A stretch of DNA of 35,766 nucleotides, taken from positions 1-35,766 of the forward strand of contig JAZDDC010000124.1 in assembly GCA_036679565.1 (NCBI GenBank). The letters are read 5' to 3'. The notes beneath the pieces are model-generated. The model worked only from the letters and a program-made list of their open reading frames with translations, was not told where the DNA came from and searched no databases. The DNA is from Gemmatimonadota bacterium (GTDB lineage: Bacteria; Gemmatimonadota; Gemmatimonadetes; Gemmatimonadales; GWC2-71-9). Positions 10,817-28,575 of this stretch are shown piece by piece (the stretch's first letter is position 1; every line of letters starts with the position of its first letter). The position numbers were made by a program, and so were the translations under genes.

Positions 10817-10872
10817 TTGCGTAGCCGCGAATTATACCGCCGGGGCTACTCGCGGATCAAGGACCAGTCTTC

Positions 10873-12633: not shown

Positions 12634-12709
12634 GATTGAACCTCCAACCTTTAGCTCTTGTGCAGAGCCCAAAGAATGGGATGAGAAGCTACACTATTAA
12701 ATACCCCAA

Positions 12710-12784: not shown

Positions 12785-12795
12785 GAGCCGCCACC

Positions 12796-12975: not shown

Positions 12976-13009
12976 GGGTGTGAGAGCCTAATCGTCTACG
13001 CCTAGGTCG

Positions 13010-13837: not shown

Positions 13838-13860
13838 GAGGAGGGCGACAAAAAGGGTTG

Positions 13861-14718
13861 TTACGACAGGTCAGGCTCCTGACCATCGGAGATCGATTGG
13901 AGCGTTTCCTTGCATCTTTCTCCCCATGGGCTAAACGCGTTGGCGCTGACACCGCGTTGCCAGGCGTCCTGTGCACCTTCGCGGTTGTTGGAGAGCCATT
14001 TCGCTTTACCCAAGTGGTAAAAGGCCTCGATCATCATGGGTGCGCGTTCAATAGCCTTGTCGAAGAACGTCTCCGCATCTTCGAACATCTCGCGCTCGAA
14101 ATACACCAAACCAAGATAAAAGTGCGCATACAACGTTGCCTTCTGATCGTTGTCGAGTCGGATGGCCTTTGACAAATGTTCGATAGCTTCGCCAAAGATT
14201 CGTTTCTTGAGGCAAATATACCCCACATTCACACGAGCCATCGAGTTGGCCGGTTCCTTCAACAACACTTGTTGAAACGTAGCAAGTGCTTCGTCGTGGT
14301 CACCGTTTTTCATTTGCGCAGAGCCGAGTTGCGTTTCAGCCTTCACGTCTCCGGGTGACAACTCTAGCGCCTTTTTGGTTGCTTGAATCGCGCCTGCGAA
14401 GTCACCGAGGTTCATCAGGTTCCAACCCTTCTCGATGAACGTGGACGCGCCAAGGTGATCGGCGACCATGGGACTGGCAGACGGCGGTTGTGCATCACCA
14501 TCGTCCGTTTCTGCCAATTCCTTGTACTCATCCACCAACACACGGATGTGTTCCTTAAATTCCGTGAGGTCATCAATGCGTTGATCGACGCCCTTGAAAA
14601 GCGCGACGATATCTTGTTTGACTTCCGCGCGCTCGGCACCTTTTGGCTTGGCTTTTAGCCGTCCGGCAATTCGTTTGTATTGACTGCGGAGTTCCGCGAT
14701 TTCCGATTGTTCATTCAT
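13861..14718 (-). CDS. Coiled-coil plus TPR repeat protein (last gene of the Che/MglA locus)
   Basis: I chose the ATG at 14718 (MNEQSEIAELRSQYKRIAGRL...), which overlaps the cheW-like stop by 8 nt. The ORF-track extension to 14913 is Cys/Arg/Pro-rich and overlaps cheW. The N-terminal ~80 aa are charged and helical. The remainder is TPR-like (GDFAGAIQATKKALELSP, HDEALATFQQVLLKEP, FGEAIEHLSKAIRLD, FEDAETFFDKAIERAP). Confidence 0.75.
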   Translation of the reverse strand: MNEQSEIAELRSQYKRIAGRLKAKPKGAERAEVKQDIVALFKGVDQRIDDLTEFKEHIRVLVDEYKELAETDDGDAQPPSASPMVADHLGASTFIEKGWNLMNLGDFAGAIQATKKALELSPGDVKAETQLGSAQMKNGDHDEALATFQQVLLKEPANSMARVNVGYICLKKRIFGEAIEHLSKAIRLDNDQKATLYAHFYLGLVYFEREMFEDAETFFDKAIERAPMMIEAFYHLGKAKWLSNNREGAQDAWQRGVSANAFSPWGERCKETLQSISDGQEPDLS

Positions 14719-15202
14719 CCAAGACTCCGATTTCGACCGAACGCAGGGACAGCAGTTCGGTGGACGCAATGAGTTTCGCAATGGCCAACACAATAATCGG
14801 CGCGGTCTGGTGCGCCACGATACCGGCGACGTAGTCGGCGGCAAGGCCACGCACAACCGGTGGCGGCACAGCGATGGCGTTTGCCGGCACGGTTTGCAAC
14901 GACAACGCGGCATCGACGATCAATCCTACGTTTCCAAAACCGCCGGTTACAACGACGACACGCAAATCGTCTCCCGACTGGGCCGATACGGCAAACCGCT
15001 TGCGGAGATCCAACACGGGGATCATTTCGTCACCGAAGGGCATCATGCCCTCGAAATAATCCGATGATTTGGGAAGGGCGGTGACCGGTTGGTACCGTAC
15101 CACACGCTCGACATCCAAGACGTTGAGTGCAAAAATCTGATCCGCCACCCGGAACGTCACAAGTTGGATCCTGTCAGCACCCGTATCACCCAAGGCGTTC
15201 AT
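14711..15202 (-). CDS. cheW: CheW-like coupling protein
   Basis: 163 aa. QLVTFRVADQIFALNVLDVERVV...ALPKSSDYFEGMMPFGDEMIPVLDLRKRF...VGLIVDA fits the CheW domain consensus. ATGA overlap with the preceding cheW-like gene. Confidence 0.85.
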   Translation of the reverse strand: MNALGDTGADRIQLVTFRVADQIFALNVLDVERVVRYQPVTALPKSSDYFEGMMPFGDEMIPVLDLRKRFAVSAQSGDDLRVVVVTGGFGNVGLIVDAALSLQTVPANAIAVPPPVVRGLAADYVAGIVAHQTAPIIVLAIAKLIASTELLSLRSVEIGVLDE

Positions 15203-15639
15203 GACGCCACCGCTTGCGTATCATCGAGTTGCGCAACGACCGAACGGGTATCGACAACGGGCAGCGCACGTCCTTCGTACGCACCGGCTCCCAGCAGCCA
15301 ACGGCTCCGTGTATCGTTGTGCAACTCGTCAGTAAGGACTATCACCTCCAACACGTCATCCACCTCGAGCGCGACAGGTGTGTTGGCGGATTGAATGACA
15401 ACGACGGTCGTACTGCCGGCGCTTTCGGTTCCATCGGAAGCCACGATACGCGACAACGGGACGACCGCCACCACACCGCGTTCGTAACGCACCACGCCAC
15501 GGACAGACGGGGCAACACCCGGGACCGGTGTGATTACCACGTTGTCAAGCACTTCGATCACGTCGCGCACCGGCAGCCCGTACGGACGACCACCCACCAA
15601 GACGACCAGTACACTCGCACCGCGTAACGTTTGTTGCAT
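15199..15639 (-). CDS. cheW: CheW-like coupling protein (divergent)
   Basis: 146 aa. VLVVLVGGRPYGLPVRDVIEVL....TPVPGVAPSVRGVVRYERGVVAVVPL...VALEVDDVLEV fits the CheW domain pattern. It starts 1 nt after the PATAN-TPR stop. Confidence 0.8.
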   Translation of the reverse strand: MQQTLRGASVLVVLVGGRPYGLPVRDVIEVLDNVVITPVPGVAPSVRGVVRYERGVVAVVPLSRIVASDGTESAGSTTVVVIQSANTPVALEVDDVLEVIVLTDELHNDTRSRWLLGAGAYEGRALPVVDTRSVVAQLDDTQAVAS

Positions 15640-15640
15640 C

Positions 15641-17263
15641 TCAACCTCGTAACGCGTTCATGGTTTCGAGATTCGTTCTGGCAAGCTGATGCTGGGGATT
15701 TCGGCGTAACGTCTGTTCCCACATATATGCTGCCCGATCTTGATCCCGATTCTTATACGCGATATTGCCGAGCTTGAAATACACGTCATCGCCTAACTCC
15801 GGATCGATCTCAACGGCACGTTCGTAGGACTCCCACGCGTCTTCAAAACGCCCGTGGCGATAAAGAATATCGCCCAAATTTTTTGAAAGCTGTGGCAGGA
15901 CCAAACCCTCAGAAATTGCGGCTCGCAACTCATTCTCCGCTTGTTCCAGTTCCCCACGCAGTTCGAGAATCACCGCAAAGTTGTTTCGTAACACGGCACT
16001 GCGCGGATACAGTTTCAGACCTTCGTTTGCGTATTCCTCCGCCGTAACGAGATCATTGCGAGCGGCATGTGACAAACACATGGCCCAATACCAAATCTCA
16101 CTGAGCCGTCTTTCCCCCGCGGCTTCCTTCGCTGACTGCAGTCGGGTCTCAGCGACTTCAAATTTGCGTTGTCGTAACGCGATGGCGCCCCAACCTGTCA
16201 GGAACCGGGGGTCGGTACCACCGTTGGATGCCGCCTCACCGTAGGTCGTTTCCGCCTCATCAAATTTGCCGAGCTGTTCTAAACAAAAGGCGACATTGTA
16301 CTTCACCGCCGATGAGTCACCGCCAAGCGCTAGCACGCGTTGGAAAACTTCGAGCGCGTCATGCCATTCTTGGCGTTGCAGGCTTACCAGTCCGAGGTGA
16401 AAATGGGCTTCGGCGGCTTTGGGATCGAGATCGACGACGCGGCGAAACTCACGGGCGGCTTCATCGAGCATACCGGTTCGGTAAAACGCTACACCAAGAT
16501 TTCGGTGTTCTTCGATCTTCGCGTCCGTGGCCACCGTTTTGGTTGCCGTTTCGCTCACGCGAGAACGATGCACAAACCCAGCGGTAATCAGACCGTAAAG
16601 CGCCTTGCCCACGTCGAATTCACTCAAACCCGCGCGCTCGACAATCGTGGCGACTGAACGATCTCCATCAATCAGTGGGATGATGATCCGCTGAGGTTCA
16701 GTCAGTTCCACATCGGAGTTTTCCAAACGCGACCGATCAAGCGTAAATACCAAATCGAACGACGTTATCTTTTTCTCAATGAGACTCCACTCGTCAATGC
16801 GGCGGGCGCCTTCCAGCAGTAACGTTTCCGGGTTGATCGACAACAGAAAATCCTGTCGTTCCGGCCGGATATCGACTTCAAAATGAAAACTGCCACGTGT
16901 CCACGTGAAGAGGTGATAAATGGCTTCCTCAACCTGAACTCGCATGTAACGTTCCAACTCGTCGGATGAAATGGCGTCCAACTCAACAAGGATCTCACCG
17001 AGCTTCTTATCCCGATCAGAATCTTGTTGCGCGACGGCGTCATCGAGCTGCTCTTTGTTGACCTTGCCGCTGTTGAGCAGGATATCGCCGAGGCGGTCAC
17101 GTCTGTTGACGATGGCGGCGTACGTAATGCGACCTTGGTCAAAGTAGACGTATCCAAGGTTTGTGCGGTCAGTCAACGAAAGGCAACCGGTCTTTTGCCC
17201 CAAGGAAAGAAGTTGAAGCACGTCGGGTAGCGAAGCCTCCTTAAGGCTTCCTTTGATGGCCAT
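15641..17263 (-). CDS. PATAN (DUF4388) domain plus TPR repeat protein
   Basis: 540 aa. The N-terminus GSLKEASLPDVLQLLSLGQKTGCLSL...VYFDQGRITYA matches the PATAN/DUF4388 signature. There is a conserved EGARRIDEWS segment, and the C-terminal half is TPR (e.g. LDEAAREFRRVVDLDP, WHDALEVFQRVLAL, FDEAETTYGEA, FEDAWESYERAVEIDP). Its start shares 1 nt with the upstream stop (TGATG). Confidence 0.85.
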   Translation of the reverse strand: MAIKGSLKEASLPDVLQLLSLGQKTGCLSLTDRTNLGYVYFDQGRITYAAIVNRRDRLGDILLNSGKVNKEQLDDAVAQQDSDRDKKLGEILVELDAISSDELERYMRVQVEEAIYHLFTWTRGSFHFEVDIRPERQDFLLSINPETLLLEGARRIDEWSLIEKKITSFDLVFTLDRSRLENSDVELTEPQRIIIPLIDGDRSVATIVERAGLSEFDVGKALYGLITAGFVHRSRVSETATKTVATDAKIEEHRNLGVAFYRTGMLDEAAREFRRVVDLDPKAAEAHFHLGLVSLQRQEWHDALEVFQRVLALGGDSSAVKYNVAFCLEQLGKFDEAETTYGEAASNGGTDPRFLTGWGAIALRQRKFEVAETRLQSAKEAAGERRLSEIWYWAMCLSHAARNDLVTAEEYANEGLKLYPRSAVLRNNFAVILELRGELEQAENELRAAISEGLVLPQLSKNLGDILYRHGRFEDAWESYERAVEIDPELGDDVYFKLGNIAYKNRDQDRAAYMWEQTLRRNPQHQLARTNLETMNALRG

Positions 17264-19218
17264 CAGCCCATTTCCCCTATTATGTAGTCAACCGGATCGG
17301 GCCATTTCCACACGACTTTTTCTGCGGTTTCAATCCCACCGGACGGAGACATCACCACACCACTCGGCCGACCACGTGCAACGGCCGCAGACTCCCGCAA
17401 TGCCGTTGCACCCACAACGTCCTTGGCAGACTCTAACGTTGGTGTCTGACCACGCGCGTCGGCAGATGTGATTACCCGTTGCCCGAGTGCCAAGACTGAC
17501 CGCACGGATTCGGCACGTTGATCGGCCAGGTAATCGACCACGGCTTCCTCCACCGGATCTGTGATACGTTCCTCAAATTGACGGGTCAGGACCATCTTGC
17601 GAAGCTCGTAGTCGGGCGACTTGAGCGTTGCAAGCAACCCTCCCTCCAACCGGGAAACCAGACGATCGTCCAGACCTCGAATCTCGCGGGGACGACGAGA
17701 AGACGTGAACACGAGTTGTCGTTCGGATTCCAACAAGACGTTGAACAAGAAGAAAATCTCTTCTTGTATCCGGTCTTGACCTCCGATGAGGTCGACATTG
17801 TCCAGTAAAAACGCAGACGCCCGTCGATAGCGTGCTCGCCATGAGGGTACGCGATTCTCGTCAATGGCCGTTACAAGCTCGTCCATGAACACTTGGGCCG
17901 ATGTACATGCAATCCAACCACGGTCCGGAAGCTCCAAGCCCCGGCCAATCCCGTGGAGGAGATGTGTTTTCCCCACACCCGACGGACCGATAATCACGAG
18001 CGGATTGTATTGCGTGCCTGGTGCGGCCAAAACCGATTCTGCCGCACTCAAGGCCATCTTTGTCGATCGACTGCGGAGAAATGTATTGATCGAGAAAGAT
18101 CTTGATGGCCCGGGTGGCGGTTCAAAATCTTCCTGCGCGCGTTTGACCACAAGACGGGCCTCTTCGACACGCTCCGGGTCACGAAAGACCGGATCACCGG
18201 CACGCTCCGGGTTACACTCGGCAACGGCGGTTTGCAACTCGAGCAACTCCGTCACGGCGTCTTCGTAGCGATTCACGGCATCGGCAGCCTCGGCGGCGAC
18301 ACCGCCGTCCAGAGCCCGTTCTAGCCGCGCCGTGTTGTAACCACGCCGGGACCAACGATCGACTACATCGCGGAGATTTTGTTGCCACACATCGACCTGT
18401 TCGGTCACGGCCGCTGTCACCCCGCTCAAAAAAGCGCCGAACTCATCCGCCGACCCAAAGACGTCACTGGATCGACTGAGCGCTAATGCCTCGTCCGCAT
18501 CGCCGCCACTCAAGACGGCCCTTCCCGCCGCGAGTGTCAACGGGACATCACTCACCGTTTGAAACGCAATGATACGATTCAGATTGCCAAGTAATTCTCT
18601 GACATTTTCCGTGTCGCGTTCGGCGATCATCGCAAGAAGCTCGGCACCCAGTTCCGCACCTCGCTCGTAGGCACGTTGGCGCAGAATGGCCAATCGGTTG
18701 TCGAAATTGGGCGGTGCGATGTCCACCACGAGACCGCCATCGATCTTCTTCAACATGCGGTCGTCGAGTTCGGACAATTCGGGAGGCGGTTGATCGCTTG
18801 TGAGCACGACTTGAACGCCGGCATCTGCCAGATCTGCGACGAAACGCAAAAGCTCGTCCTGTACCTCCGGCCGCCGGGCAACGAACTGGACGTCGTCGAT
18901 CAAAACGAGATCGGACGTCAGGTACCGCTCGCGGAAGGACTCGAGCAATTGCTGACTTTCCGCGGCGCGGTACGCCTCCATGAAGTCATCGAGTGTCAGA
19001 TAGTGCACCACACGGTTCGGATCCACCGACAACGTTTCATGACCAACGGCCATCAGCAGATGTGTCTTCCCAAGTCCCGTGCCACTGTGCATGAACAGCG
19101 GGTTGTGCACCGACCCGGGGTGTTCGGCGACAGCATGGGCAGCGGTGACGGCGACACGGTTGCCATCTCCGATCACAAACGTATCAAACGTATAGCGTGG
19201 ATTGAACGCCGAACTCAT
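17263..19218 (-). CDS. Tandem double DnaA/Hda-type AAA+ ATPase, no DNA-binding domain IV
   Basis: 651 aa. Module 1 has [36 protein letters not shown] (Walker A), LVLIDDVQF (Walker B), VVLTSDQPP and [10 protein letters not shown]. Module 2 has [61 protein letters not shown] and ESVRSVL. Both copy DnaA domain III almost motif for motif. There is no DnaA N-terminal domain and no C-terminal HTH signature. The start overlaps the mglA stop (ATGA). Confidence 0.9.
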
Positions 19219-19814
19219 CCGGGCGGCGCCTCGCTCAGCTTCCTCAATACCATTTCTGAAATCGCCTTCAGGGTCTCAAAAACACCGGTGCCACCCAACG
19301 CGTCCGCGCCTATGTGGGGCACTCCGCGAAAATTTAACGCCTCATTCAGTTCGTCCGCCGTGAGGATCAACTCCTTTGGCAGACCCTGTTTGTTGTACTG
19401 GAAAACAATCGGCAATGTTCGCACGTCAACACCTTGCGCCAACAAATTCTCCTGAAGATTCTGCAAGCTTGCGAGATTTTCATCTAGCTGTCTGGCCTGG
19501 CTGTCCGCGACGAACACCACACCGTCGGCCCCCTGAAGCACCAGCTTTCGAGTGGCATTGTAGTATACCTGCCCTGGCACAGTGTACAATTGAAACCGCG
19601 TCGTGAAACCAGAAATTTTGCCGAGTTCCAAGGGGAGGAAATCAAAAAACAACGTCCGGTCCGATTGTGTTGCCAGAGAGACCATGCGCCCCCGCCGCGC
19701 CTCGGGCACCTTTTCGTATACGTACTGTAAATTTGTCGTTTTGCCGGAACGACCGGGTCCGTAGTACACGATTTTACACGTGATTTCACGCGTCGTGAAA
19801 TTGATTAGCGACAT
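19215..19814 (-). CDS. mglA: Ras-like polarity GTPase MglA
   Basis: I chose the ATG at 19814. [36 protein letters not shown]...[48 protein letters not shown]... is collinear and highly similar to Myxococcus and Thermus MglA as I recall them. The G4 motif reads NKQG instead of NKxD. Confidence 0.95.
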
Positions 19815-19815
19815 A

Positions 19816-20286
19816 TCAATCCTGAAAGAGCGAGGCGAGACTCTGGTTGAGTTCGCGCTCGAAGTCAGCCGCCAACACGGGCTCGGATGACACCGGCGCC
19901 GGATTGGCTTCATTCAATTCGTTGACGAACTCCTCAAAAAATAGGTGAACTAAACCCAAAGAGGATTCGCGCCCGTAAATGACGAGCAACACCATCGGTC
20001 CGGAAGGGCTTTCGAACGCCGACAAGAACACGCCGTGGGTTGGCCCCTGATGGTTTAACATCGAAAATGACGGTTCGCGAAGCATCTTCGTGATTTCCGC
20101 CGTTGACGACACGATGGCCGCGCCGAGCGCAGCCGCCGCCATGACGTCCACCGCCCGTGTGAAACCATGTTGCGCAAACACTTGGCCTGTTGGGTTCATC
20201 AGGAGAGCCAACCGCGCTCCGGATTCGGATATGAACATCTCCATGGGTTTCTCAGCCCACGGGTGCACCGCACGGACCCCGCTCAC
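19816..20286 (-). CDS. mglB: Roadblock/LC7 protein MglB (MglA GTPase-activating protein)
   Basis: 156 aa, immediately upstream of mglA with a 1-nt gap. It has the Roadblock pattern (...[14 protein letters not shown]...[28 protein letters not shown]) and an acidic/hydrophobic C-terminal tail ending LASLFQD, as in Myxococcus MglB (..TSLGLVRLRIKKASDEL.. / ..IDNLFSE). The GTG start overlaps the upstream stop (GTGA). Confidence 0.85.
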
Positions 20287-20633
20287 GCAAAAACCTCACC
20301 GGCGCGCAGCATCTCCAACCTCACCAGACCCACGTTCGTGTTGGTATCCGTAACAATGACTACAAGGACATCTTGATTTGTGGCCAAGACCAAAACCGCG
20401 CCCTCGGTGCATTGCATGTGAAGAAACCTGGGTTCGCCAGCCTTTGCGGTGCCCGAGACCCAGGTGAATTTACCAAACACACTAGCAGCGAGGGCGGCGA
20501 GAGCCTTTCCGCGCACGCCTTCCATCAAAGTCTCGGCGATGACCAACCCGTCGTCTCGGGCTACAAACATTGCCCCTTGGACACCACGGACCCGTGTCAA
20601 AACATCGAGCACTCCCTGTAACTGGTGTGTCAC
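20283..20633 (-). CDS. Roadblock/LC7 domain protein (MglB/MglC-like paralog)
   Basis: 116 aa. LDVLTRVRGVQGAMFVARDDGLVIAE....ALAALAASVFG...VLVLATNQDVLVVIVTDTNTNVGLVRLEM fits the Roadblock/LC7 consensus. GTGA overlaps at both ends. Confidence 0.8.
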   Translation of the reverse strand: MTHQLQGVLDVLTRVRGVQGAMFVARDDGLVIAETLMEGVRGKALAALAASVFGKFTWVSGTAKAGEPRFLHMQCTEGAVLVLATNQDVLVVIVTDTNTNVGLVRLEMLRAGEVFA

Positions 20634-21400
20634 GGGCGTTGTCCCTCCAACCAGCCACGGGCCGCGTCATTTGCTTTTTGCGCGAGAAAGGCCAGTCTCC
20701 CCGGCGGTACACTCCGATCTCGCATGGTGACAAGGCATGTTTCATTGGTTGGTTGCGTGAGATGAACATTTTGACTCGCCGACTCCGCGATAAGCCATTC
20801 CCATTTGCCCAGATCCAAGAGACGGGCCGTTCGTTCGGCCTCTCGCACAAGAGCGGCCACCCGCGCGGCCATTTCATCTGTGTTCGCGTTACCACCCAGA
20901 CGACCTGCCAGTACACGACCGGCGTCATCGACAAGTAACAGCCCGTGTTCGGCTCCCTCCAAACCTGCAAAGATATTCGGCTCCTCGTCGTCCTCTTCGA
21001 TCGTACGCGCCGTGGTACGAACCAGCTGAAACGCCTGTAATACGCTTTGATCGGTAGGATCAACGGCCAACGCTGTCTCGAGGTGCTCGAGCGCGGCATC
21101 GAGGTCGCCGCGCGAATAATAAAGGAAACCCAATCCCTTATGGGCGCCTTGATGCCGTGCGTCGCGCTGAAGGACCGTCTCCCAGACATGACGAGCTTCA
21201 TCGGGACGAGAAGCATCGAGTAAGAGTCGTGCGTACAGGTCCCTGGCCGCCGGCAGATCGGGATAACGTTCAAGACCGGACAATGCAACCGCGGTGGCGG
21301 ATTCCAGATCACCCTTGCGCCGCAACCCCTCACCCAATCTGAGAAATACAAGGCTGTCCGGATCACGCGCAAACTCCCGCGCCAGTGCTTGGATGTCCAC
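20630..21400 (-). CDS. TPR (N-terminal) plus Roadblock/LC7-like (C-terminal) fusion protein
   Basis: 256 aa. The N-terminal ~130 aa are TPR-like (LESATAVALSGLERYPD, PDEARHVWETVLQRDA, LDAALEHLETALAVDP), followed by an acidic linker (EEDDEE). The C-terminus GLLLVDDAGRVLAGRLGG....AARVAALVREAERTARLLDLGKWEWLIAES...CLVTMRDRSVPPGRLAFLAQKA has the Roadblock pattern. That domain call is by eye only. Confidence 0.65.
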   Translation of the reverse strand: MDIQALAREFARDPDSLVFLRLGEGLRRKGDLESATAVALSGLERYPDLPAARDLYARLLLDASRPDEARHVWETVLQRDARHQGAHKGLGFLYYSRGDLDAALEHLETALAVDPTDQSVLQAFQLVRTTARTIEEDDEEPNIFAGLEGAEHGLLLVDDAGRVLAGRLGGNANTDEMAARVAALVREAERTARLLDLGKWEWLIAESASQNVHLTQPTNETCLVTMRDRSVPPGRLAFLAQKANDAARGWLEGQRP

Positions 21401-21408
21401 GATCGAGA

Positions 21409-22551
21409 TCAGGCCTTGAGAAACGCGTCTAGCGTCTGCGCAGCCTTGATAGCGCTCTGCACATGCTCGGTCGTGGCGTCTTCTGCATCAGTTTCTTCAT
21501 TGAGTTGCAACCAATGACCCCACCACGCGCTAGCCTCTTTCAGCCGGCCCTGACGGGCGAGGGCGTCACCCAGGAGTCGATGACCGAGTGCCATGGAGGA
21601 ATCCAATCTGAGGGCGCGGCGCAACGTCTCCTCGGCGTCTTCGGCGCGTTCGGCAGCCAGATGTACACGCCCCATGGTCAACAGGAGTCGTGCGTCGTGT
21701 GGCTGATCAGAGAGTGCCATTTCGATCACAGAACGTGCGCCCTCGAGGTCTCTTTCGCGCAGTGCACCCTCGGCCTCGGCAATTCTTTGATCGGTGGTGT
21801 CTTCTTCGATGATAACGGGGTGGCTACTTGAGCGCCGTGCAAGGATGGTGACGATGCCGGCACTCTCCATGCCAAAGATCGTTCGCGCCACATCGAATTC
21901 CGACTTACTCAACGACTTTGCAATCCCTCTCACGTCGCGCAACCCATCGATCATCGCGAGTAGCTCCCACTCCGTTGGCAACAGATCGAGTTCGCCTTCT
22001 TCGCCGGCAACTGCCGCCGTCAGCGCCGGCACGACGCCCACGTGTGGAATTTTGCGTTCCATCCGCGACCACTCATCGATCCGCCGCGCACCCTCCATAA
22101 GCAATGCTTCAGTCCTGATGCGTGTCGATGCGTCCCCCGGGACTGATTGATCGTCTTCTTCGAAGGAGAAATAACCTTCGTGCCAACTCATCATCTCGAA
22201 GATTACTTCTTCCACTTGAAAACGAACTTGCCGCTCCAGCTCCCCCGCCGTGATCGCTCCGACGGAGATCAAGATTTCTCCGATCTTTCGAGAGTCACCA
22301 TGTTCTTGTTGGGTCCGTGCCTGTCGTAGATCGGCCTCGGCGACCTTCCCCGACCGCACAAGAAGCTCTCCCAACGGATGAGGGTTGCTACGGATCTCGG
22401 CATAAATCACCGACCCCGATTGTAGCCACACCGCACCCTGGTTGCGTCGGAGTTGGGAGGTTACCCGTAGGACACCAGTTTTCTTGCTCAAATCGAGCAG
22501 TTGAAAAACGTCGTGAATTCCGAGTTCCTTGAGCGGGCCCTCGATAGCCAT
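21409..22551 (-). CDS. PATAN (DUF4388) domain plus TPR repeat protein (paralog of 15641..17263)
   Basis: I chose the ATG at 22551, 1 nt after the upstream stop. MAIEGPLKELGIHDVFQLLDLSKKTGVLRV...VWLQSGSVIYA is the PATAN signature. It shares the EGARRIDEWS segment and the xIDGxR..xxIA....SEFDV middle region with the other paralog. The C-terminus is TPR. Confidence 0.85.
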   Translation of the reverse strand: MAIEGPLKELGIHDVFQLLDLSKKTGVLRVTSQLRRNQGAVWLQSGSVIYAEIRSNPHPLGELLVRSGKVAEADLRQARTQQEHGDSRKIGEILISVGAITAGELERQVRFQVEEVIFEMMSWHEGYFSFEEDDQSVPGDASTRIRTEALLMEGARRIDEWSRMERKIPHVGVVPALTAAVAGEEGELDLLPTEWELLAMIDGLRDVRGIAKSLSKSEFDVARTIFGMESAGIVTILARRSSSHPVIIEEDTTDQRIAEAEGALRERDLEGARSVIEMALSDQPHDARLLLTMGRVHLAAERAEDAEETLRRALRLDSSMALGHRLLGDALARQGRLKEASAWWGHWLQLNEETDAEDATTEHVQSAIKAAQTLDAFLKA

Positions 22552-22552
22552 C

Positions 22553-25234
22553 CTACGCTGCCTCGGTCCGAAAAATGTGACTGAGTTCGTCCGCGGATCG
22601 CAGGTGCCGGCGAGCCGAAGCCGCACGTGGACCGGACGGATCAAGACTCACGACACGTGTCCATGCGGCGGCCGCCTCACTGTATCGCCGCAACTTAGCC
22701 TGCGCCAAGCCCAGAAAATAATAGGCATCCACCTGACTCACCTCAAATGCCAACACGCGTTGAAACGCACTGGCCGCTTCGACAAATCTGCCATCGGCCA
22801 ACAGAGCCTCGCCCAACGCCAACATGGCCTGAATGTTCGTGGGGTTTCCGCGTACCAAATCCGCCAGCAGGTTGACCGCGCTCCGCGCAGCCCCCTGGCG
22901 GACACAAAGCCTCGCGAGCGGCAATGCCGCCTCAGACGACCCGGGTTCTGCATCCAACGCCGCACGGTAGGCGGCCTCGGCGGCGGCCAAGTCGTTACGT
23001 GCTTCATGTAATTCGCCGAGTTCCACGAGCAACGTCAATAATTTTGGGTCAAGTGTCAGCGCACCCTCGTAGGCCTTCAGAGCGCGCTCGTAGTTGCCAA
23101 GGTCAACGGCAATGGCTCCCTCAACCTTCAAGATGTCGGCACGTTGCGGTGCGCGCTTGTGCGCACGTTCAAGCACCTCCAGCGCGCTTGCGGGGTCCTT
23201 ATTGGCAAGTAACGCTTCGGCGAAAACGAGGAGCACGTCCGCGTCACCAGCGTGTTTATCCGCCCACTCTTTGGCCATATCGAGCGCTTCGCGGTTTTTC
23301 CCGGTGGCCAAGAGTGCTCGGATTTCACTAATTCCCAACGGAAGACGTTCTGGCCGGGACCGGCGCGCCTCGCGGAAACGTTCGAGAGCTTCGCCGTGCA
23401 GGCCGCGACGCGTAAAGATGCCTCCCAACAGGGCCTGGCCCTCACCGGGATCCGCACCCCGCACCAATGCGCGATTTGCCTCGGCAGCGGCCAGATCATA
23501 AAGACCCTTGCTGATATAATCACGTGCCAATCCGAAGGCATCATCGACGGGTTTCGACACCGTTGCGTCGGTTGACGCGCTCAGTTCCGAAAAAACATCC
23601 TCCAAGACCTTAGGATCGAAATCGAACTCCGCTGTGCCATCGGTGGATATATCCGCCGAAATCTCCGGAACCACCGTTATCGACGGATCCTCCAACTGAA
23701 GTTCGATCGAAAGTTGGAATTTTTGCGGAACGTAGTACGGGTCGATGTTTTGTGCGCGTGTCACGGCACGCAATGCCGCGTCGTAGTCGCCAAGCGCGGA
23801 CAGCGAGAAACTGAGATTGTAATGGGCTTCCGCTGAGTTCGGCTCGCTTTCGACGGCGCGGACAAACGCATTGCGGGCGTCTTCCTGTTGGCCAAGTTCG
23901 GCCATCACCAACCCAAGACCGTTCCACGCCGGGGCGCTGGACGCATTTCGTTCGATAACTTGCCGATAGGTCTGGGCGGCCACTTTCAATCGTCCGGAAC
24001 TCAATAACAACTTCCCCAAGTTGAGCACGGGCCGTTCCAGTTCTGGTCGCGAAAGCATGGCCTGGCGAAACGCAGACAGCGCTTCCGCATTTTTACCATC
24101 ATGCGCCAACGTCACCGCGAGATTGTTACTGGCCAGCGCGTAGTGCTCGTCATGATGCAACGCTTCTCGGTACGACTGCAACGCGTCTGTGTAACGACCG
24201 AGTTGATGTAATACGACGCCTCGTTCGTTCCAGAGCTTTGGCCGATCCGGCATTTCACGAAGCAAAGAATCGTACAGGTCGAGTGCGGCGGCATAATCTC
24301 GTTTGAGCGAGCTAACCTCCGCGATGGCTTCGATCACATGCCGGCGATCCTCACCATGGTCGAGTGCCAAACGAAATTCCCGCAGCGCGTCCGTCAGATA
24401 ACCTTGAGAACGGAACGCGACACCGAGGTTGTAGTGAGCCATGGGATCAGGATCCGATGGCACGCCCTCGTCGCCACCTGGAATCTCATATGCCGCATTG
24501 GATCGATCGCCGACGTAGGGTTCCAACGAGAGGTTGGTTTGCACGCGGCCAAATGACGGATTCAGACGTATCGCCTGGTTTGTTGCTTCGCGTGCTTCCT
24601 CATGCCGTCCTGAGTCGCCCAAGAGAAACGCAATCAGATAATGTGCTTCGGCGTTGTCGGGATTCAGCGTGACCGACCGCTCGAGTGAGCGCAGTGCCTC
24701 CTTTTTTGCGCCTTGATTGTACAGCACCTCACCGCGGTAAAAATGTCCAACCGTGCTTTCCGGGTCGATCTCCACGGCACGGTCGAACCACTCCACGGCA
24801 TCGTCCAAATTTCCCCGCCGCTTTTCGGCGAGCCCACTCTGTGTTACCGCAGCAACGTCATCCGGATTGAGTTCCAAGATGGATTGGAATTGCGCGATCG
24901 CGAGGTCAAACTGATTGAGGGAGGCGTACGCACGCCCAAGTTCCCATTGCGACTCACGTTCTGCCGGATCGTCACGAAGACGCTCTTGCAGTTGCGCCAC
25001 CCGCCGGTCGTAGAAACCGGTTTCTTCGTACGCGATTTCGAGGTTGCGTTGCGCCACGCGCATTTTGGGATCCAACTCGATGGCGCTACGAAATTCCTCG
25101 ATGGCCTCATCAATCAGACCCTTCCGAAAATACAACACGCCCAAGTTGTTGTGGGCGCCGGGATCTGACGGATCGATTCGTCTCGCGAAGGAGCGGAGAG
25201 TTTCTTTCTCAGCTTCAGATAGTGCTGCGGGCAC
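22553..25234 (-). CDS. Large (893-aa) TPR repeat protein
   Basis: There are continuous 34-residue TPR-like repeats across nearly the whole length (e.g. HNNLGVLYFRKGLIDEAIEEFRSAIELDP, QWELGRAYASLNQFDLAIAQFQSILELNP, AHYNLSFSLSALGDYDAALRAVTRAQNIDP). GTG start 2 nt after the cheC stop. The stop is 1 nt before the PATAN gene. Confidence 0.85.
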   Translation of the reverse strand: MPAALSEAEKETLRSFARRIDPSDPGAHNNLGVLYFRKGLIDEAIEEFRSAIELDPKMRVAQRNLEIAYEETGFYDRRVAQLQERLRDDPAERESQWELGRAYASLNQFDLAIAQFQSILELNPDDVAAVTQSGLAEKRRGNLDDAVEWFDRAVEIDPESTVGHFYRGEVLYNQGAKKEALRSLERSVTLNPDNAEAHYLIAFLLGDSGRHEEAREATNQAIRLNPSFGRVQTNLSLEPYVGDRSNAAYEIPGGDEGVPSDPDPMAHYNLGVAFRSQGYLTDALREFRLALDHGEDRRHVIEAIAEVSSLKRDYAAALDLYDSLLREMPDRPKLWNERGVVLHQLGRYTDALQSYREALHHDEHYALASNNLAVTLAHDGKNAEALSAFRQAMLSRPELERPVLNLGKLLLSSGRLKVAAQTYRQVIERNASSAPAWNGLGLVMAELGQQEDARNAFVRAVESEPNSAEAHYNLSFSLSALGDYDAALRAVTRAQNIDPYYVPQKFQLSIELQLEDPSITVVPEISADISTDGTAEFDFDPKVLEDVFSELSASTDATVSKPVDDAFGLARDYISKGLYDLAAAEANRALVRGADPGEGQALLGGIFTRRGLHGEALERFREARRSRPERLPLGISEIRALLATGKNREALDMAKEWADKHAGDADVLLVFAEALLANKDPASALEVLERAHKRAPQRADILKVEGAIAVDLGNYERALKAYEGALTLDPKLLTLLVELGELHEARNDLAAAEAAYRAALDAEPGSSEAALPLARLCVRQGAARSAVNLLADLVRGNPTNIQAMLALGEALLADGRFVEAASAFQRVLAFEVSQVDAYYFLGLAQAKLRRYSEAAAAWTRVVSLDPSGPRAASARRHLRSADELSHIFRTEAA

Positions 25235-25236
25235 GG

Positions 25237-25923
25237 TCAGTTCACGCGTATTGCATCAAAGATCGCCTGTAACGATGGCCCATCCGGCAAGAGGAGAAAG
25301 TGTCCCAAAAGACGTTGCTCAGCCTCTCGAAAGAAAAACTCCGTCTCGACACACAGGATCGTGTCGTGCTCGTCGGTGGGTTCGGCCAACGCCGATTTCA
25401 ACACCACCCCCGCCTCGTCCGCCACCAACGTCGGTACGGATGGAAGCAACATCATTCCCATGAAATCGGATAACGCATTGAGGTACGCCCCACCCAGGAT
25501 ATTTCCTGCCTCCTTGAGACTGGACTCCTCCAGTTCATTGAACGATGTGGTGGAGCCCGGTTCTTTTCGCATCAGCAGATCGCACAAAAGTCGCGCATCC
25601 GCGTCCGGCAACAAAAGAAGTGTCCGTCCGGTCAGATCACCCAGCATATGCATGAAAACGGCTATGACCCGTCCCGACGGGTCACCGAGCAAACCGGCGG
25701 CATCTTCGTACCGCGTCACGTTGATCTCGGGAATCGAAATCATGATGCTGCGGTCGGTCATTTGTGACAATGCCGTCGCCGCATGGCCGGCGCCAATATT
25801 TGCTACCTCACGCAGCGCATCGAGCTGCAGTGCCTTGAGACTTCGCACAGCGGACATCATGTCTTCCTCCTCAGACATCAGTCGTGTCGCTGTCGTAGCG
25901 ACCGAAAACCTACGACAAATCAA
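25237..25923 (-). CDS. cheC: CheC-family CheY-P phosphatase
   Basis: It has two CheC active-site ExxN motifs in the typical context (LDALREVANIGAGHAATALSQM and SSLKEAGNILGGAYLNALSDF). The start is uncertain: either the TTG at 25923 (TTGA overlap with the cheA stop) or the ATG at 25878. Confidence 0.85.
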   Translation of the reverse strand: MICRRFSVATTATRLMSEEEDMMSAVRSLKALQLDALREVANIGAGHAATALSQMTDRSIMISIPEINVTRYEDAAGLLGDPSGRVIAVFMHMLGDLTGRTLLLLPDADARLLCDLLMRKEPGSTTSFNELEESSLKEAGNILGGAYLNALSDFMGMMLLPSVPTLVADEAGVVLKSALAEPTDEHDTILCVETEFFFREAEQRLLGHFLLLPDGPSLQAIFDAIRVN

Positions 25924-27767
25924 ACCAGGCGAGCAGCGTCCAGAATGAGGACGGGTTCTCCCTCTCCAAGTACCGTGGCTCCACCAAAAAACGGCGCCGT
26001 CCCACGAGGCATATCGAACGCCCGAGCGACAATGTCTCGTTGCCCGACGACACGATCCACCACAAGTCCGGTCCGCCGCTCACCTACCTGCACGATGATA
26101 ACCGGCTGGCGGGTTGGGCCCGTCCCATCCAACTGCACAAGATCGCGTAACCGCGAGAGCGGAACCGTGCCATGCCTCACGGTAAGCCTGTCGGTCTCGC
26201 CATCGCGAGTTGTCGAACGCGCATCGAGATCAACCGTTTCGGCCACATGTGTGAGCGGAATGGCATACCGTTCACTTCCCACCTCCGCTATCAACGCAGG
26301 CAAGATGGCCAGTGTCGGCGGAAGTCGAAGCGTAAAAACTGTGCCTCGACCTACCTCAGACTCCATATCCAACGACCCTCCAATGCTCCGGAGGCGGGTC
26401 ATGACCACATCAATCCCCACTCCACGACCGGAAAGATCCGATACACTCGAGGCGGTGGAGAAGCCAGGCTGGGCCAAAAGCTCTAAAAGCTCTTCAGTCT
26501 TCAAGTTATCGGCATTTTGGCCCGGGATCTGGCGTTCCCTGGCTTTTCTCAGGATACGGTCCCGATCGACCCCCCGGCCATCGTCCCGCACCCGAATCAC
26601 GATCATGGCCCGCTCCCGGTGCGCCGAGAGCGTAATCCGACCGGCCGCCGGTTTTCCGCTGGCCACCCGTTCTTCAGGTGTTTCAATGCCGTGGTCTATG
26701 GCATTCCGCAATAGATGTAGCAACGGATCGCTCAGCTCATCCAGAATCGCGCGGTCCAACTCGATCTCACGACCCTCAATAGCGAGGACCACTTGCTTCC
26801 CATGCTCACGGGCGGCATCCCTGACACCACGCGGGAACCTGTCAAAAACCTGAGACACAGGCGCCATGCGAGCCTGAATAACTTCGTGTTGGAGCCCCTC
26901 GACCAGGTGCGAAACCTTCCGAGTCATGGCCTCCAACGTGGGATCAGAACGTCCTGCGGCCAACTCAATCAACCCGGCTTTGGCGGTCGTGAGTTCTCCC
27001 ACGAGCTTCATAATCGCGTCCAGCCGCCGCAGATCGACCCGCACGTGACGAGCGGCGGTCGACTCCTTGGTATCCGTTCCCGCTTCGGCAATCGTCACCG
27101 ACTCGACGTCGCCGGCTCCCCTGATCAACTCCTCGATTTCCAGGTCTGACTGATCGGTCTGTAGTCCAAAGCTGAACCGACCGTCAAAGGCCTGTGTCTC
27201 CATGGATGTCTGTGGCGGAGAAACCGCCAGGACGTTTCCGAGTGCAGCCACACGCTGAAGCACCAGGGCCGCACGGGCCCCCCGTAACAACGCGTCCCTT
27301 CGGATCCGGACTTCCAGACGACGGGTGCCGGCTGGGGCCGTGGGTGGCGATTCCGGTGGTTGACTTTCCGTTTCCGCGTCCACCGGTTGGAACGAACCGG
27401 CAAAACTGTCGAGCGGGGCGATGGCCTGGTTTACATCAGTGGATTCGCGACCGTTTACGGCATCATCGATGGATTGCTCAAGTCGGTCCGCCGATTGGAA
27501 CAAAAGCTGAAGCAATTCCTGATCTGGCGGATCGGGAGACGCCCGCACCAGATCGAGCACATTCTCAATGGCATGAGACAAGCGCGCGACGCCACTGAAC
27601 CCCATGGTGGCAGACATGCCCTTGAGATTGTGGACCGCGCGGAAGATGGCATCGACGGACCCCGTGGCGTCAGGTCGCCCTTCCAGCACGAGGAGCTGAT
27701 TGTTGATGACCGCGAGATGTTCGCGGCTCTCGTCGAGAAAAAGATCCGCGTACTTCGCGGGGTCCAT
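25920..27767 (-). CDS. cheA: Chemotaxis histidine kinase CheA
   Basis: 615 aa. Hpt/P1 with the phospho-His context IFRAVHNLKGMSATMGF, a dimerisation region (RVDLRRLDAIMKLVGEL), an HATPase N-box HLLRNAIDHGIE, G1 DDGRGVD, G2 GRGVGIDVV, and a C-terminal CheW-like P5 domain. Confidence 0.95.
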   Translation of the reverse strand: MDPAKYADLFLDESREHLAVINNQLLVLEGRPDATGSVDAIFRAVHNLKGMSATMGFSGVARLSHAIENVLDLVRASPDPPDQELLQLLFQSADRLEQSIDDAVNGRESTDVNQAIAPLDSFAGSFQPVDAETESQPPESPPTAPAGTRRLEVRIRRDALLRGARAALVLQRVAALGNVLAVSPPQTSMETQAFDGRFSFGLQTDQSDLEIEELIRGAGDVESVTIAEAGTDTKESTAARHVRVDLRRLDAIMKLVGELTTAKAGLIELAAGRSDPTLEAMTRKVSHLVEGLQHEVIQARMAPVSQVFDRFPRGVRDAAREHGKQVVLAIEGREIELDRAILDELSDPLLHLLRNAIDHGIETPEERVASGKPAAGRITLSAHRERAMIVIRVRDDGRGVDRDRILRKARERQIPGQNADNLKTEELLELLAQPGFSTASSVSDLSGRGVGIDVVMTRLRSIGGSLDMESEVGRGTVFTLRLPPTLAILPALIAEVGSERYAIPLTHVAETVDLDARSTTRDGETDRLTVRHGTVPLSRLRDLVQLDGTGPTRQPVIIVQVGERRTGLVVDRVVGQRDIVARAFDMPRGTAPFFGGATVLGEGEPVLILDAARLV

Positions 27768-27769
27768 CG

Positions 27770-28132
27770 TTACGCGAGAACTCGCTGTACCGCTTCGAGC
27801 ACACGCGACGGTTGAAACGGCTTGACCACGAAATCCTTCGCACCAGCCTGGATGGCTTCAACCACCAGCGCCTGTTGGCCCATCGCGCTACACATGAGCA
27901 CCCGCGCGGACGGATCGATTTTCACGATCTCACGGACCGCATCAATCCCACCCATGTCGGGCATCACAATGTCCATTGTCACGAGGTCGGGCTTCAGCTC
28001 CGTGAATCGGTCGACGGCCTCCACACCGGTCTCGGCCTCTCCAATCACGTCGTAATCCGCCTGCCTCAGAATATCGCCAATCATGGTTCGCATGAAGATG
28101 GCGTCGTCACACACAAGAACGGTTTGGCTCAC
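27770..28132 (-). CDS. cheY: Single-domain response regulator CheY
   Basis: 120 aa. Acidic pocket VCDDA, phospho-acceptor VTMDIVMPDM, and conserved S/T (CSAMG) and K (VVKPF). GAGGAGG lies 4 nt upstream of the GTG start, which overlaps the cheW stop (GTGA). Confidence 0.95.
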   Translation of the reverse strand: MSQTVLVCDDAIFMRTMIGDILRQADYDVIGEAETGVEAVDRFTELKPDLVTMDIVMPDMGGIDAVREIVKIDPSARVLMCSAMGQQALVVEAIQAGAKDFVVKPFQPSRVLEAVQRVLA

Positions 28133-28560
28133 ACCACCTCCTCAGATGGCATCACGGCTGTTGACAATACTACTGGGTCCAAAACAGCGAAGGAGACCTC
28201 GTGATGGACGCCGATCCCACTTACAAACGGCGACCGGATTCCCGGTAAAGCCGCTCGCGGCGAAAAATCACCCTCACCAACCGTCACCATGTCCACCACC
28301 TCATCCACAGCCAGCCCAAACCGGTGTCGGTCCGCTTCCAGTAGCACAATGGAGTATCGGTCAGTGCTAGTGTTCTGCTGAAGAGCGGCACGTGCGTCTA
28401 TCAGTGTCATGAGTTCGCCACGGACGCTGACCAATCCACGCACGGGGGGGTTGGCCCCTGGAATACGGGTCACGGGCAGCACCGGCAAGACCTCCCGCAC
28501 GCAGTTCACCGGTACCGCGCACGTCAGTTCATCAACTTTGAAAACAAGAAACCGCGCGAT
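28129..28560 (-). CDS. cheW: CheW coupling protein (5' end uncertain)
   Basis: The ORF-track start (GTG at 28509) truncates the domain. The same frame upstream reads IARFLVFKVDELTCAVPV-NCVREVLPVLPVTRIPGANPPVRGLVSVRGELMTLID, which is the canonical CheW N-terminal strands. There is no ATG, GTG or TTG between the in-frame TAATAG at 28573..28578 and 28509. I placed the 5' boundary at the ATC at 28560 as a candidate non-canonical start. Confidence 0.8.
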   Translation of the reverse strand: MARFLVFKVDELTCAVPVNCVREVLPVLPVTRIPGANPPVRGLVSVRGELMTLIDARAALQQNTSTDRYSIVLLEADRHRFGLAVDEVVDMVTVGEGDFSPRAALPGIRSPFVSGIGVHHEVSFAVLDPVVLSTAVMPSEEVV

Positions 28561-28575
28561 GGAAAACGCTGCCTA

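Follow-up and report, generated by a model that had tools for sequence, protein, structure and literature searches.

In Myxococcus, the Frz chemosensory pathway acts on the MglA/MglB polarity switch from separate loci (PMC4316618; PMC4546325), and the authors of the second study proposed that MglAB had been co-opted by a chemosensory system in the past. MglA recruits SgmX, a protein of 14 TPRs that directs PilB to the pole, and PATAN proteins and SgmX occur together (PMC11580455). In Synechocystis, PATAN binds PilB1/PilC and serves as an output of Che-like systems (bioRxiv 10.1101/2021.06.11.447907). The survey of Wuichet and Sogaard-Andersen 2014 (PMC4316618) recorded group 1 MglA in Gemmatimonadetes and some group 1 and group 5 mglA genes near PATAN genes, and its Table S2 lists for G. 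aurantiaca GAU_1115 as 'MglB>MglA>' and GAU_1409 as 'PATAN>MglA>-PATAN>'. Here we describe a locus in which such genes stand side by side, at positions 13861-28560 on the minus strand of contig JAZDDC010000124.1, from a metagenome-assembled genome (MAG) of a soil-type Gemmatimonadota bacterium; the whole stretch of 35.8 kb (35,766 nucleotides, nt) that was analysed is called the window below. Neighbourhoods of PATAN, MglA and Roadblock genes were reportedly noted by Makarova et al. in 2006. The open reading frames (ORFs) and their junctions were recomputed from the sequence, and 15 consecutive minus-strand ORFs fill the interval exactly where a preliminary description of this DNA had put 15 co-directional genes. 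Profile searches bore out every domain that it had assigned and also its gene order: cheW, cheY, cheA, cheC, an 893-amino-acid (aa) TPR gene, a PATAN-TPR gene, a TPR-Roadblock fusion, a Roadblock gene, mglB, mglA, a tandem DnaA-type (Bac_DnaA) ATPase gene that we call DnaA2x, a second PATAN-TPR gene, two further CheW-like genes and a coiled-coil TPR gene (ccTPR). By gene content and by analogy with the systems above, we read this as the Gemmatimonadota version of a conserved polarity locus, in which an MglA/MglB polarity module receives an accessory Che input and probably steers a polar motility organelle; we hold this reading with moderate confidence.

By composition, the locus is neither a Frz orthologue, nor a PatA-type system, nor a conservon, although it may work like Frz. 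It resembles the Frz-MglA/MglB/RomR-SgmX machinery of Myxococcus in encoding a Che-type pathway, MglA, a Roadblock GTPase-activating protein (GAP), extra Roadblock paralogues (cf. MglC) and large TPR proteins. Unlike in Myxococcus, where these parts lie in separate loci, they form one conserved array here; CheA is plain, lacking a receiver domain, CheY is separate, and CheC is present (with CheD in relatives), while a FrzE-type CheA-CheY fusion, FrzZ and an in-locus receptor are all missing. RomR, RomX and RomY were not seen in the locus, and DnaA2x has no counterpart in Myxococcus. The cyanobacterial Tax/Pix operons likewise encode Che-like genes together with PATAN proteins, PATAN being the output domain there, and in cyanobacterial PATAN, too, there is a helical insertion akin to the N-terminal domains of PilB/GspE ATPases. 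In contrast to those operons, whose PatA-type proteins join PATAN to a C-terminal receiver (PATAN-REC) and act on type IV pili, both PATAN proteins here carry TPRs instead of a receiver and have no Response_reg match, CheY is encoded apart, MglA/MglB, Roadblock paralogues and DnaA2x are added, and the locus holds no receptor gene. Actinobacterial conservons (CvnA-D) also combine a histidine kinase, a Roadblock protein and an MglA-family GTPase in one operon (PMC4316618), but their kinase is a membrane sensor kinase and not CheA, their MglA belongs to group 2, and they have no PATAN, TPR, Che or AAA+ genes. Whereas surveys of PATAN, MglA and Roadblock genes recorded only immediate neighbours, the array seen here comprises 15-18 genes.

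The array is conserved among relatives. About 20 loci with tandem DnaA2x were collected from ENA, NCBI, JGI and Logan assemblies, and the window proteins were mapped onto them by tblastn. A contig search with the DnaA2x protein returned a 97% relative (L001, a MAG labelled Gemmatimonadota bacterium TC87O_Bin_23), a true dnaA followed by dnaN (L002) and one weak match; a metagenome search by Walker A peptide yielded 80 loci, most of them ordinary dnaA genes and only about 15 of them tandem DnaA2x. Wherever the contig reaches, the common order is rluD, cheW-cheY-cheA-cheC-TPR-PATAN-TPRRobl-Robl-mglB-mglA-DnaA2x-PATAN-cheR-cheD-cheB-cheW-cheW-TPR, peptidase-TPR-mraW. The order from rluD to the peptidase gene is kept in L001, L004, L006, L007, L008, L013, L014, L016, L017, L019 and L088, loci whose DnaA2x identity spans 97% to 33%. 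The genes are thus linked in related genomes, the scattering that would have refuted the preliminary description is not seen, and the order recurs across the Gemmatimonadota. It is this recurrence in about 20 independent contigs, and not the spacing, which shows that chance does not account for the arrangement. The finest details of the junctions are conserved as well: the 4-nt mglA/DnaA2x and 1-nt DnaA2x/PATAN2 overlaps are identical in the window, L004, L006, L087 and L088, and the second PATAN-TPR gene (PATAN2) adjoins DnaA2x in all 18 of the 18 loci with sequence downstream of DnaA2x. Overlaps conserved across lineages support a coupling of neighbouring gene pairs, and the predicted translational coupling of mglA, DnaA2x and PATAN2 is itself conserved. 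As far as the sequences tell, the core of the locus is vertically inherited.

The relatives also indicate which parts can be lost. The common locus has 18 genes, with cheR-cheD-cheB placed after the second PATAN-TPR gene and ahead of the cheW pair, and this form is probably the ancestral one. These three genes are gone from the window and from L001; the 'one 15-gene unit' of the preliminary description is consequently not the basic form but a lineage-specific reduction of the 18-gene locus. Its remark that the locus has no receptor stands in so far as profile searches of the window proteins found no methyl-accepting chemotaxis protein (MCP), nor CheR, CheB or CheD, but it does not extend to a receptor-independent design: since the common locus includes cheR-cheD-cheB, the pathway would be receptor- and methylation-dependent, with its receptors encoded elsewhere. 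Further stages of loss are represented by three other loci. L016 is without cheB and the two downstream cheW genes. L087, which after L001 is the closest relative among the collected loci (58% DnaA2x identity), has no Che gene at all; in its positions 2831-15322, a 166-nt gap after rluD is followed by a nine-gene core in order, from TPR893 to ccTPR (TPR, PATAN-TPR, TPR-Roadblock, Roadblock, MglB, MglA, DnaA2x, PATAN-TPR, TPR), and then by the peptidase gene. In L020, a distant contig (8528-14226), only DnaA2x (605 aa) and a PATAN-TPR gene (539 aa), overlapping by 1 nt, lie between rluD and the peptidase gene; no Che, Mgl or Roadblock gene is left there, nor any further TPR gene. Judged from this pattern, the Che genes are accessory and not an obligatory part of the circuit, and the window seems to have stopped midway in such a reduction. 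The proposal that the whole circuit is contained in one unit therefore holds for its parts, which do stand together in conserved order, but not for an obligatory Che phosphorelay, which is lost in L087 and partly lost in the window and in L016. Nor is the AAA+ protein an 'added' component, as had been suggested, since DnaA2x and PATAN2 are the most persistent pair. As a separate observation, L013 carries an extra AAA_22-type ATPase gene (266 aa) between cheB and cheW2 (positions 15910-16710), and its cheW2 has an N-terminal extension of about 90 residues.

Recomputation of the junctions reproduced the GTGA overlaps at 28129-28132, 20630-20633 and 20283-20286, the ATGA overlaps at 19215-19218 and 15199-15202, the TGATG junction at 17261-17265 and the 8-nt overlap at 14711-14718, as well as the gaps of 1-2 nt at cheY/cheA, cheC/TPR893, TPR893/PATAN1, PATAN2/cheW2 and mglB/mglA, where 1 nt lies between the mglB end and the mglA start; the gap between PATAN1 and the TPR-Roadblock gene is 8 nt. 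The cheA/cheC junction is probably no overlap, since the most likely cheC start leaves a gap of about 59 nt. Tight spacing as the mark of a single 15-gene operon was not upheld. The whole 35.8-kb window is minus-strand coding, and every junction from divIVA (35004) to the Peptidase_MA gene (13010) is of 49 nt or less. Between rluD and cheW1 lie 15 nt (66 nt with GTG 28509 as the cheW1 start), and between ccTPR and the peptidase gene 23 nt; the first real breaks in the array are of 337 nt and 188 nt, and tRNA-Val and tRNA-Asp sit in them. Because rluD upstream and the peptidase gene downstream are joined just as tightly, operon boundaries are not set by spacing, and one transcript over all genes is a proposal. 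An Rfam and tRNA scan of the window found two tRNAs, both outside the locus, and no riboswitch or leader.

At the centre of the core, mglA (19215..19814, on the minus strand like all features below) encodes a Ras-like polarity GTPase of 199 aa from ATG 19814. Over residues 1-194 it matches M. xanthus MglA (6hjh/5ymx) at a phmmer E of 5e-73 and T. thermophilus MglA (3t12) at 1e-65; it is 63% identical to M. xanthus MglA over 194 aligned residues and 73-88% identical across the phylum, and its P-loop, its arginine in TDRTLFFDF (M. xanthus R53) and its glutamine in VPGQ (Q82) all align. These similarities place it in the MglA family, probably in group 1, and an MglB-type Roadblock GAP gene adjoins it. 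This neighbour, mglB (19816..20286), encodes a predicted Roadblock-type GAP that matches MglB in the PDB (6h5b, E 3e-8; Thermus MglB 3t1r, E 4e-5). Its assignment is specific, as all eight PDB matches are MglB and the NCBIfam MglB model is its only match (E 9.5e-9), at 35.5 bits and below the 200-bit equivalog cutoff; against Pfam Robl_LC7 it scores 18.8 bits, below the cutoff of 23. Two further Roadblock proteins are encoded beside it: a single-domain Roadblock/LC7 paralogue of MglB (20283..20633; Pfam Robl_LC7 E 1.4e-11), whose PDB matches are the Robl_LC7 proteins 7f8f/7f8m and, weakly, MglB, and a TPR-Roadblock fusion (20630..21400; Pfam TPR_2 and others, with Robl_LC7 E 4e-9 at residues 153-224). 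The core begins with TPR893 (22553..25234), an 893-aa all-TPR protein matching many TPR Pfam families, with an orthologue of 44-63% identity in all loci covering its position, the che-less L087 included. It ends with ccTPR (13861..14718), which has a helical N-terminus (a putative coiled coil) followed by TPRs (several TPR Pfam families) and orthologues of 50-73% identity, again including one in L087.

Both PATAN-TPR proteins, PATAN1 (21409..22551; Pfam DUF4388 E 2e-32, and TPR) and PATAN2 (15641..17263; DUF4388 E 8e-38, and TPR), fall clearly within the PATAN family (DUF4388, PF14332), with scores of 112 and 130 bits (cutoff 25), and both have the helical insertion of that family. In each, this insert looks like an MshEN-type, predicted cyclic di-GMP (c-di-GMP)-binding unit, borderline in the case of PATAN1. 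MshEN was defined by Wang et al. (PMC5013675) as two 24-residue motifs. The PATAN2 insert (residues 54-110; 16934..17104) scores 50 bits against the NCBIfam model NF053729 (cutoff 38) and matches T. thermophilus PilF (6f8l, E 2e-9) and V. cholerae MshE-N (5htl, E 4e-4) by phmmer. In an AlphaFold2 model with a predicted local distance difference test score (pLDDT) of 78.7, it forms a four-helix insert at residues 57-120, which superposes on the c-di-GMP-bound structures 5htl (MshE-N) at 1.8 A and 8pdk (PilF GSPII-B) at 0.9-1.0 A. Among 24 sequences, G59, L73, Q80, G89, L103 and Q110 of PATAN2 are invariant and R57 nearly so. The insert of PATAN1 (residues 59-111; 22219..22377) reaches 37.9 bits against the cutoff of 38, and its PLG...Q / KIG...Q motif pair is visible in PATAN1 orthologues. 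As in V. cholerae MshE and T. thermophilus PilF, two 24-residue RLGxx..G..L...L..Q motifs lie in a four-helix unit; the unit is, however, inserted in a PATAN domain here and heads a secretion or pilus ATPase there, and in the window Asp takes the place of the second-motif glycine and Lys is the first residue. Binding of c-di-GMP is a prediction. Taken with the models, the inserts suggest a second-messenger (c-di-GMP) input to the locus. Outside the insert, a winged-helix-like unit is seen at about residues 170-236 of the PATAN2 model. Foldseek found no match at E <=0.001 for the whole N-terminal model of PATAN2 (residues 1-240; window 16544-17263); the best whole-domain matches were Nprl2/Nprl3 of GATOR1, a Rag-GTPase GAP complex, and these were weak (E 0.05-0.1, template modelling score about 0.3). 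That PATAN may have a GTPase-regulator fold is a lead drawn from the model, a hint and as such unsupported.

The partner of PATAN2, DnaA2x (17263..19218), is a 651-aa protein built from a pair of AAA+ modules of the DnaA domain-III type (residues 1-250 and 375-606; Pfam Bac_DnaA twice, E 2.8e-88), joined by a helical linker (259-364) and followed by a disordered but conserved C-terminal tail (607-651). It matches DnaA domain III 8bv3 in the PDB at E 1e-54, module 1 is about 45% identical to B. subtilis domain III, and between its two halves the identity is 28% (E 8e-29). Its AlphaFold2 model (pLDDT 81.5; predicted template modelling score, pTM, 0.50) comprises two AAA+ modules with lids, the linker domain and the disordered tail, and its top Foldseek matches are DnaA domain III; the pTM of 0.50 gives no reading of how the two ATPase modules face each other. 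Motif conservation was read from an alignment (A2) of 15 family members. Without exception the members share the Walker A motif of each module, the Walker B of module 1 (D108, D109), the sensor-II arginines R207 and R573 and, in module 2, the pair of box-VII arginines (R519, R523); the second Walker B is DD in most members and DN in the window's clade, and in module 1 the second box-VII arginine is Lys in the window. After the module-2 Walker B, most members have a KERxQEE stretch, which may correspond to the single-strand-binding B-motif of DnaA. The tail (17266-17400) is conserved as R.SG...EK.VW.WP....IEExx-COOH. Its acidic end recalls the EEVD tails that are bound by TPR clamp domains, and four TPR-containing proteins are encoded alongside; any such parallel is speculation.

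The linker family is narrow, with 195 proteins at E <=0.001 among 1.84 billion representatives, and complete proteins that have it are about 640-670 aa long with the linker at the same place. Full-length homologues of about 650 aa number in the thousands, and every named one belongs to Gemmatimonadetes, Gemmatimonadales or Gemmatimonadaceae. Public annotation calls them 'chromosomal replication initiator protein DnaA', and DnaA2x scores 437 bits against TIGR00362 (cutoff 344), a threshold that it passes because domain III is doubled. The protein has the initiator-clade AAA+ domain III, but Pfam finds no Bac_DnaA_C and no DnaA_N match, and because it is without DnaA domains I, II and IV, DnaA2x is not a replication initiator on the evidence of its domain content; the DnaA label on these proteins is a systematic annotation error. 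Like members of the DnaA/Hda clade, both modules have Walker A, sensor II, box-VII arginines and the DnaA domain-III fold. Unlike them, DnaA2x has two modules per chain and a family-specific helical linker, and it is encoded between mglA and a PATAN-TPR gene. An Hda-like replication regulator that stands here by chance was rejected on account of the invariant overlaps with mglA and PATAN2 and the retention with PATAN2 alone. No clamp-binding motif was seen at the N-terminus, which was inspected by eye only.

The Che genes of the window make up a Che-type pathway with a five-domain CheA, CheW and CheY, in which the phospho-acceptor histidine and aspartate are present. CheA (25920..27767) is a histidine kinase with the order Hpt-P2-dimerisation-HATPase-CheW (five Pfam domains) and an HxxKG phospho-histidine motif at H46; its best NCBIfam match is CheA_Halo, below that model's cutoff. 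CheY (27770..28132; Pfam Response_reg E 1e-29) is a single-domain response regulator with an intact aspartate pocket (D9/D10, D54, S82, K104) and an identity of 78-90% across the phylum. CheC (25237..25860) is a predicted CheY-P phosphatase that matches Pfam CheC in two stretches and has both ExxN motifs. Its longest ORF extends to 25923; the likely start is ATG 25860 or 25857, behind GAGGAGG, which gives 206-207 aa, compared with 206-208 aa in relatives. CheC scores 154 bits against NCBIfam CheC_Thtogales, below the 250-bit cutoff. The CheC and CheD composition, together with the below-cutoff best matches CheC_Thtogales and CheA_Halo, makes flagellar class F1 of Wuichet and Zhulin a candidate class for the pathway. 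Three genes encode CheW-like proteins: cheW1 (28129..28566; Pfam CheW E 2.8e-21), a coupling protein whose start codon is lost and which is matched from profile position 16; cheW2 (15199..15639; E 5e-17), a divergent member 28-42% identical to its orthologues; and cheW3 (14711..15202; E 2.5e-25).

From these parts the following working of the locus can be proposed, in which we infer each protein-protein step and the output organelle by analogy. Receptors encoded elsewhere would control CheA via the CheW proteins. CheA would phosphorylate the single-domain CheY, and CheC would reset CheY-P. CheY-P might then act in trans on a Roadblock, TPR or PATAN protein and so shift the balance of MglA-GTP and MglB between the poles, MglB stimulating GTP hydrolysis by MglA. 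MglA-GTP would recruit TPR effectors, as it does SgmX in Myxococcus, and the PATAN-TPR proteins would address the polar motor, as PATAN does PilB and PilC in Synechocystis; PATAN-TPR plus a separate CheY would represent a 'split' version of the cyanobacterial PATAN-REC regulators. A second input, c-di-GMP, would enter via the MshEN-type PATAN inserts, and DnaA2x would be an ATP-driven scaffold or switch beside PATAN2. The catalytic residues are present, namely the CheY aspartate pocket, the CheA histidine, the two CheC ExxN sites and the P-loop, arginine and glutamine of MglA.

Several points weigh against the proposal that a Che input acts on an MglA/MglB polarity module. Protein interactions and the single transcript are proposals from the genes alone, and spacing gives no border between the locus and rluD or the peptidase gene. 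Motif scans found promoter-like and terminator-like sites at the level of shuffled sequence (5 vs 5.7 expected and 19 vs 21 expected, respectively), and are thus uninformative on transcription. The role assigned to DnaA2x, probably an ATP-dependent oligomerising scaffold or switch paired with PATAN2, is a guess. In agreement with the preliminary description, profile searches found no pilus, gliding or flagellar gene in the window, and neither pilus, flagellar nor receptor genes occur in the window or in the 10-kb flanks of the relatives. In L087 the Che module is lost without loss of the core, and because the one can go while the other stays, Che-MglA coupling is not obligatory. The lost start of cheW1 may be a sign of Che decay in this lineage. 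Finally, CheC and CheD with CheR and CheB are typical of a Bacillus/Thermotoga-type flagellar set and not of Frz, and cultured Gemmatimonas has a single polar flagellum (PMC9862903); for these two reasons the Che part could serve a flagellum. It should be noted that the rival explanations considered here and below exclude neither each other nor the polarity module with Che input.

The last of these points leads to an alternative in which the Che genes form an ordinary Bacillus/Thermotoga-type pathway that steers a polar flagellum through CheY-P at the motor switch, while the core is a separate entity and the interleaving is inherited synteny. The composition of CheA, CheW, CheY, CheC, CheD, CheR and CheB fits this well, as does the Thermotogales model being the best, if below-cutoff, match of CheC; the Che genes went as a block in L087, and partly in the window and L016, with the core undisturbed; and because housekeeping rluD is joined as tightly to cheW1, tight spacing alone is no proof of shared function. 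On the other hand, the core has Che genes on either flank (cheW-cheY-cheA-cheC and cheR-cheD-cheB-cheW-cheW) with overlapping stops and starts (1 nt for PATAN2/cheR, 8-16 nt for cheW/ccTPR), this split layout is kept down to 33-39% DnaA2x identity, no flagellar genes are nearby, and the cyanobacterial PATAN proteins are bona fide Che-like outputs (bioRxiv 10.1101/2021.06.11.447907). We consider a purely flagellar Che pathway possible and, on balance, unlikely.

The constraint on individual genes bears on whether the Che genes of this organism are in use at all. In the comparison with L001, the ratio of nonsynonymous to synonymous substitution rates (dN/dS) is 0.33 or lower for all 15 genes. 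The highest values belong to cheW1 (0.33), cheW2 (0.24), cheA (0.12) and cheW3 (0.105), and the other eleven genes range from 0.011 to 0.070, including mglA, PATAN1 and PATAN2 (0.026-0.037) and DnaA2x (0.056). CheY, CheC, MglA and the PATAN proteins are thus under strong purifying selection, while constraint on the CheW genes, the fastest evolving of the locus, is relaxed; the receptor-coupling side appears to be the least constrained. The start of cheW1 has changed as well. In relatives (junctions in L004 and L006), the rluD stop lies 1 nt before the cheW1 ATG. An alignment with two distant relatives shows that this ATG has become TAG in the window and in L001, where it directly follows the rluD TAA (window 28509-28578; L001 715-840). 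The codon at 28560 is ATC, no ATG, GTG or TTG occurs upstream of 28509, and CheW homology continues in frame to about 28566; the first canonical start, GTG 28509, costs about 17 residues of the CheW domain. The only possible starts in this sequence are therefore ATC 28560 and the truncating GTG 28509. A sequencing error at this place, considered in view of the mraY frameshift described below, was rejected, as the independent assembly L001 has the same TAG.

One could accordingly regard the Che genes of this organism as a decaying remnant, with only the nine-gene core functional, as in the sister lineage L087. The absence of cheR, cheD and cheB, the change of the cheW1 ATG to TAG, the ranking of cheW1, cheW2, cheA and cheW3 at the top of the dN/dS values and the loss of all Che genes from the nearest other relative are what would be expected of such a remnant. 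Opposed to it, all Che ORFs are intact with dN/dS well below 1, few genes of the locus are as constrained as cheY (0.012) and cheC (0.011), and CheA keeps its five domains and its phospho-histidine. We find full decay quite unlikely; because of the dN/dS pattern, the part made up by the kinase, CheY and CheC appears to be still in use, with the CheW layer loosening.

A different output for the core is suggested by its surroundings. Upstream lie YggS, divIVA, PNP, ileS, a dksA-like gene, lspA and rluD, and downstream a metallopeptidase gene, a TPR gene and the dcw cluster from mraW to murG. The place between divIVA/ileS and dcw, from which a role in division had been suggested, is indeed occupied and is conserved across the phylum, but as mere synteny it is not evidence of a division function. 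In this alternative, the core would govern polar growth, budding, division-site choice or chromosome-linked polarity, with DnaA2x coupling the state of replication or of the nucleoid to MglA. It draws on the constant location between the divIVA-ileS-lspA-rluD block and the dcw cluster, on the descent of DnaA2x from a replication initiator whose AAA+ fold it keeps, on the KERxQEE stretch retained in module 2 of most members, on the occurrence of DnaA2x-PATAN2 without MglA in L020, and on the habit for which the genus Gemmatimonas is named, budding. Yet vertical inheritance would be expected to keep the position constant within one phylum, and DnaA2x has neither the DNA-binding domain IV nor the N-terminal domains of DnaA. 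The MglA and PATAN systems characterised so far all act on motility organelles, and the core is not translationally coupled to any division or replication gene. We regard this alternative as improbable. A related idea on DnaA2x itself, which we offer as a long shot, is that a duplicated initiator ATPase was recruited to a GTPase polarity machine, where, with its obligate partner, the predicted c-di-GMP-sensing PATAN-TPR protein, it would be the oldest and most persistent part of the locus and might, like DnaA domain III, form an ATP-driven filament or spiral that marks a pole or ties nucleoid or replication state to MglA; its acidic tail would possibly dock to the TPR proteins of the operon. 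If true, DnaA2x would represent a class of polarity factor not seen before, and the DnaA fold would have gained a new fate.

Of the immediate neighbours, the rluD pseudouridine synthase gene (28576..29583; Pfam PseudoU_synth_2 and S4) is constant upstream. Downstream, in all relatives including L020 and L087, lies the gene for a membrane-anchored metallopeptidase (13010..13837; Pfam Peptidase_MA_2 E 3e-9) with a HELAH motif and a C-terminal hydrophobic helix, which may belong to the same transcription unit as the locus. Between the peptidase gene and mraW, a 599-aa TPR gene is flanked by tRNA-Val(TAC) (12710-12784) and tRNA-Asp(GTC) (10742-10816), both on the minus strand and found by the tRNA scan; an mraZ gene was not seen directly upstream of mraW. 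Within the dcw cluster, mraY (3716-4749, minus strand) is split in two overlapping ORFs whose junction lies near 4470-4489, at a run of seven A; one piece of 87 aa has the MraY signature and the other, of 257 aa, Glycos_transf_4. Since mraY is normally essential, this split is probably a frameshift from an assembly error, and further assembly errors in the window are possible given this one. An anti-phage defence system was also considered and rejected, as PADLOC gave generic AAA and TPR noise for the locus and no match to a defence system.

The association of PATAN, MglA and Roadblock genes and the group 1 MglA of Gemmatimonadetes are already known, whereas DnaA2x is without a described counterpart; literature searches on MglA/MglB found no description of the array, its Che flanks, DnaA2x or the conservation across the phylum. 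The locus is a physical example, in another phylum, of the union of MglAB with a chemosensory system. Even in Myxococcus, whose components are dispersed over the genome, it is understood only in part how a Che signal reaches MglA/MglB, and an array that holds a kinase pathway, a GTPase switch and nine candidate adaptors across a phylum provides a short, ordered list in which to look for the missing links. Loci with full, partial and zero Che content, and one reduced to a minimum of two genes, amount to natural 'deletion experiments', and two unexpected players are added, a predicted c-di-GMP-binding PATAN insert and a tandem DnaA-type ATPase. As cultured Gemmatimonas species exist, these questions are experimentally approachable, and the locus offers an apparently undescribed system for asking how sensing connects to cell polarity.

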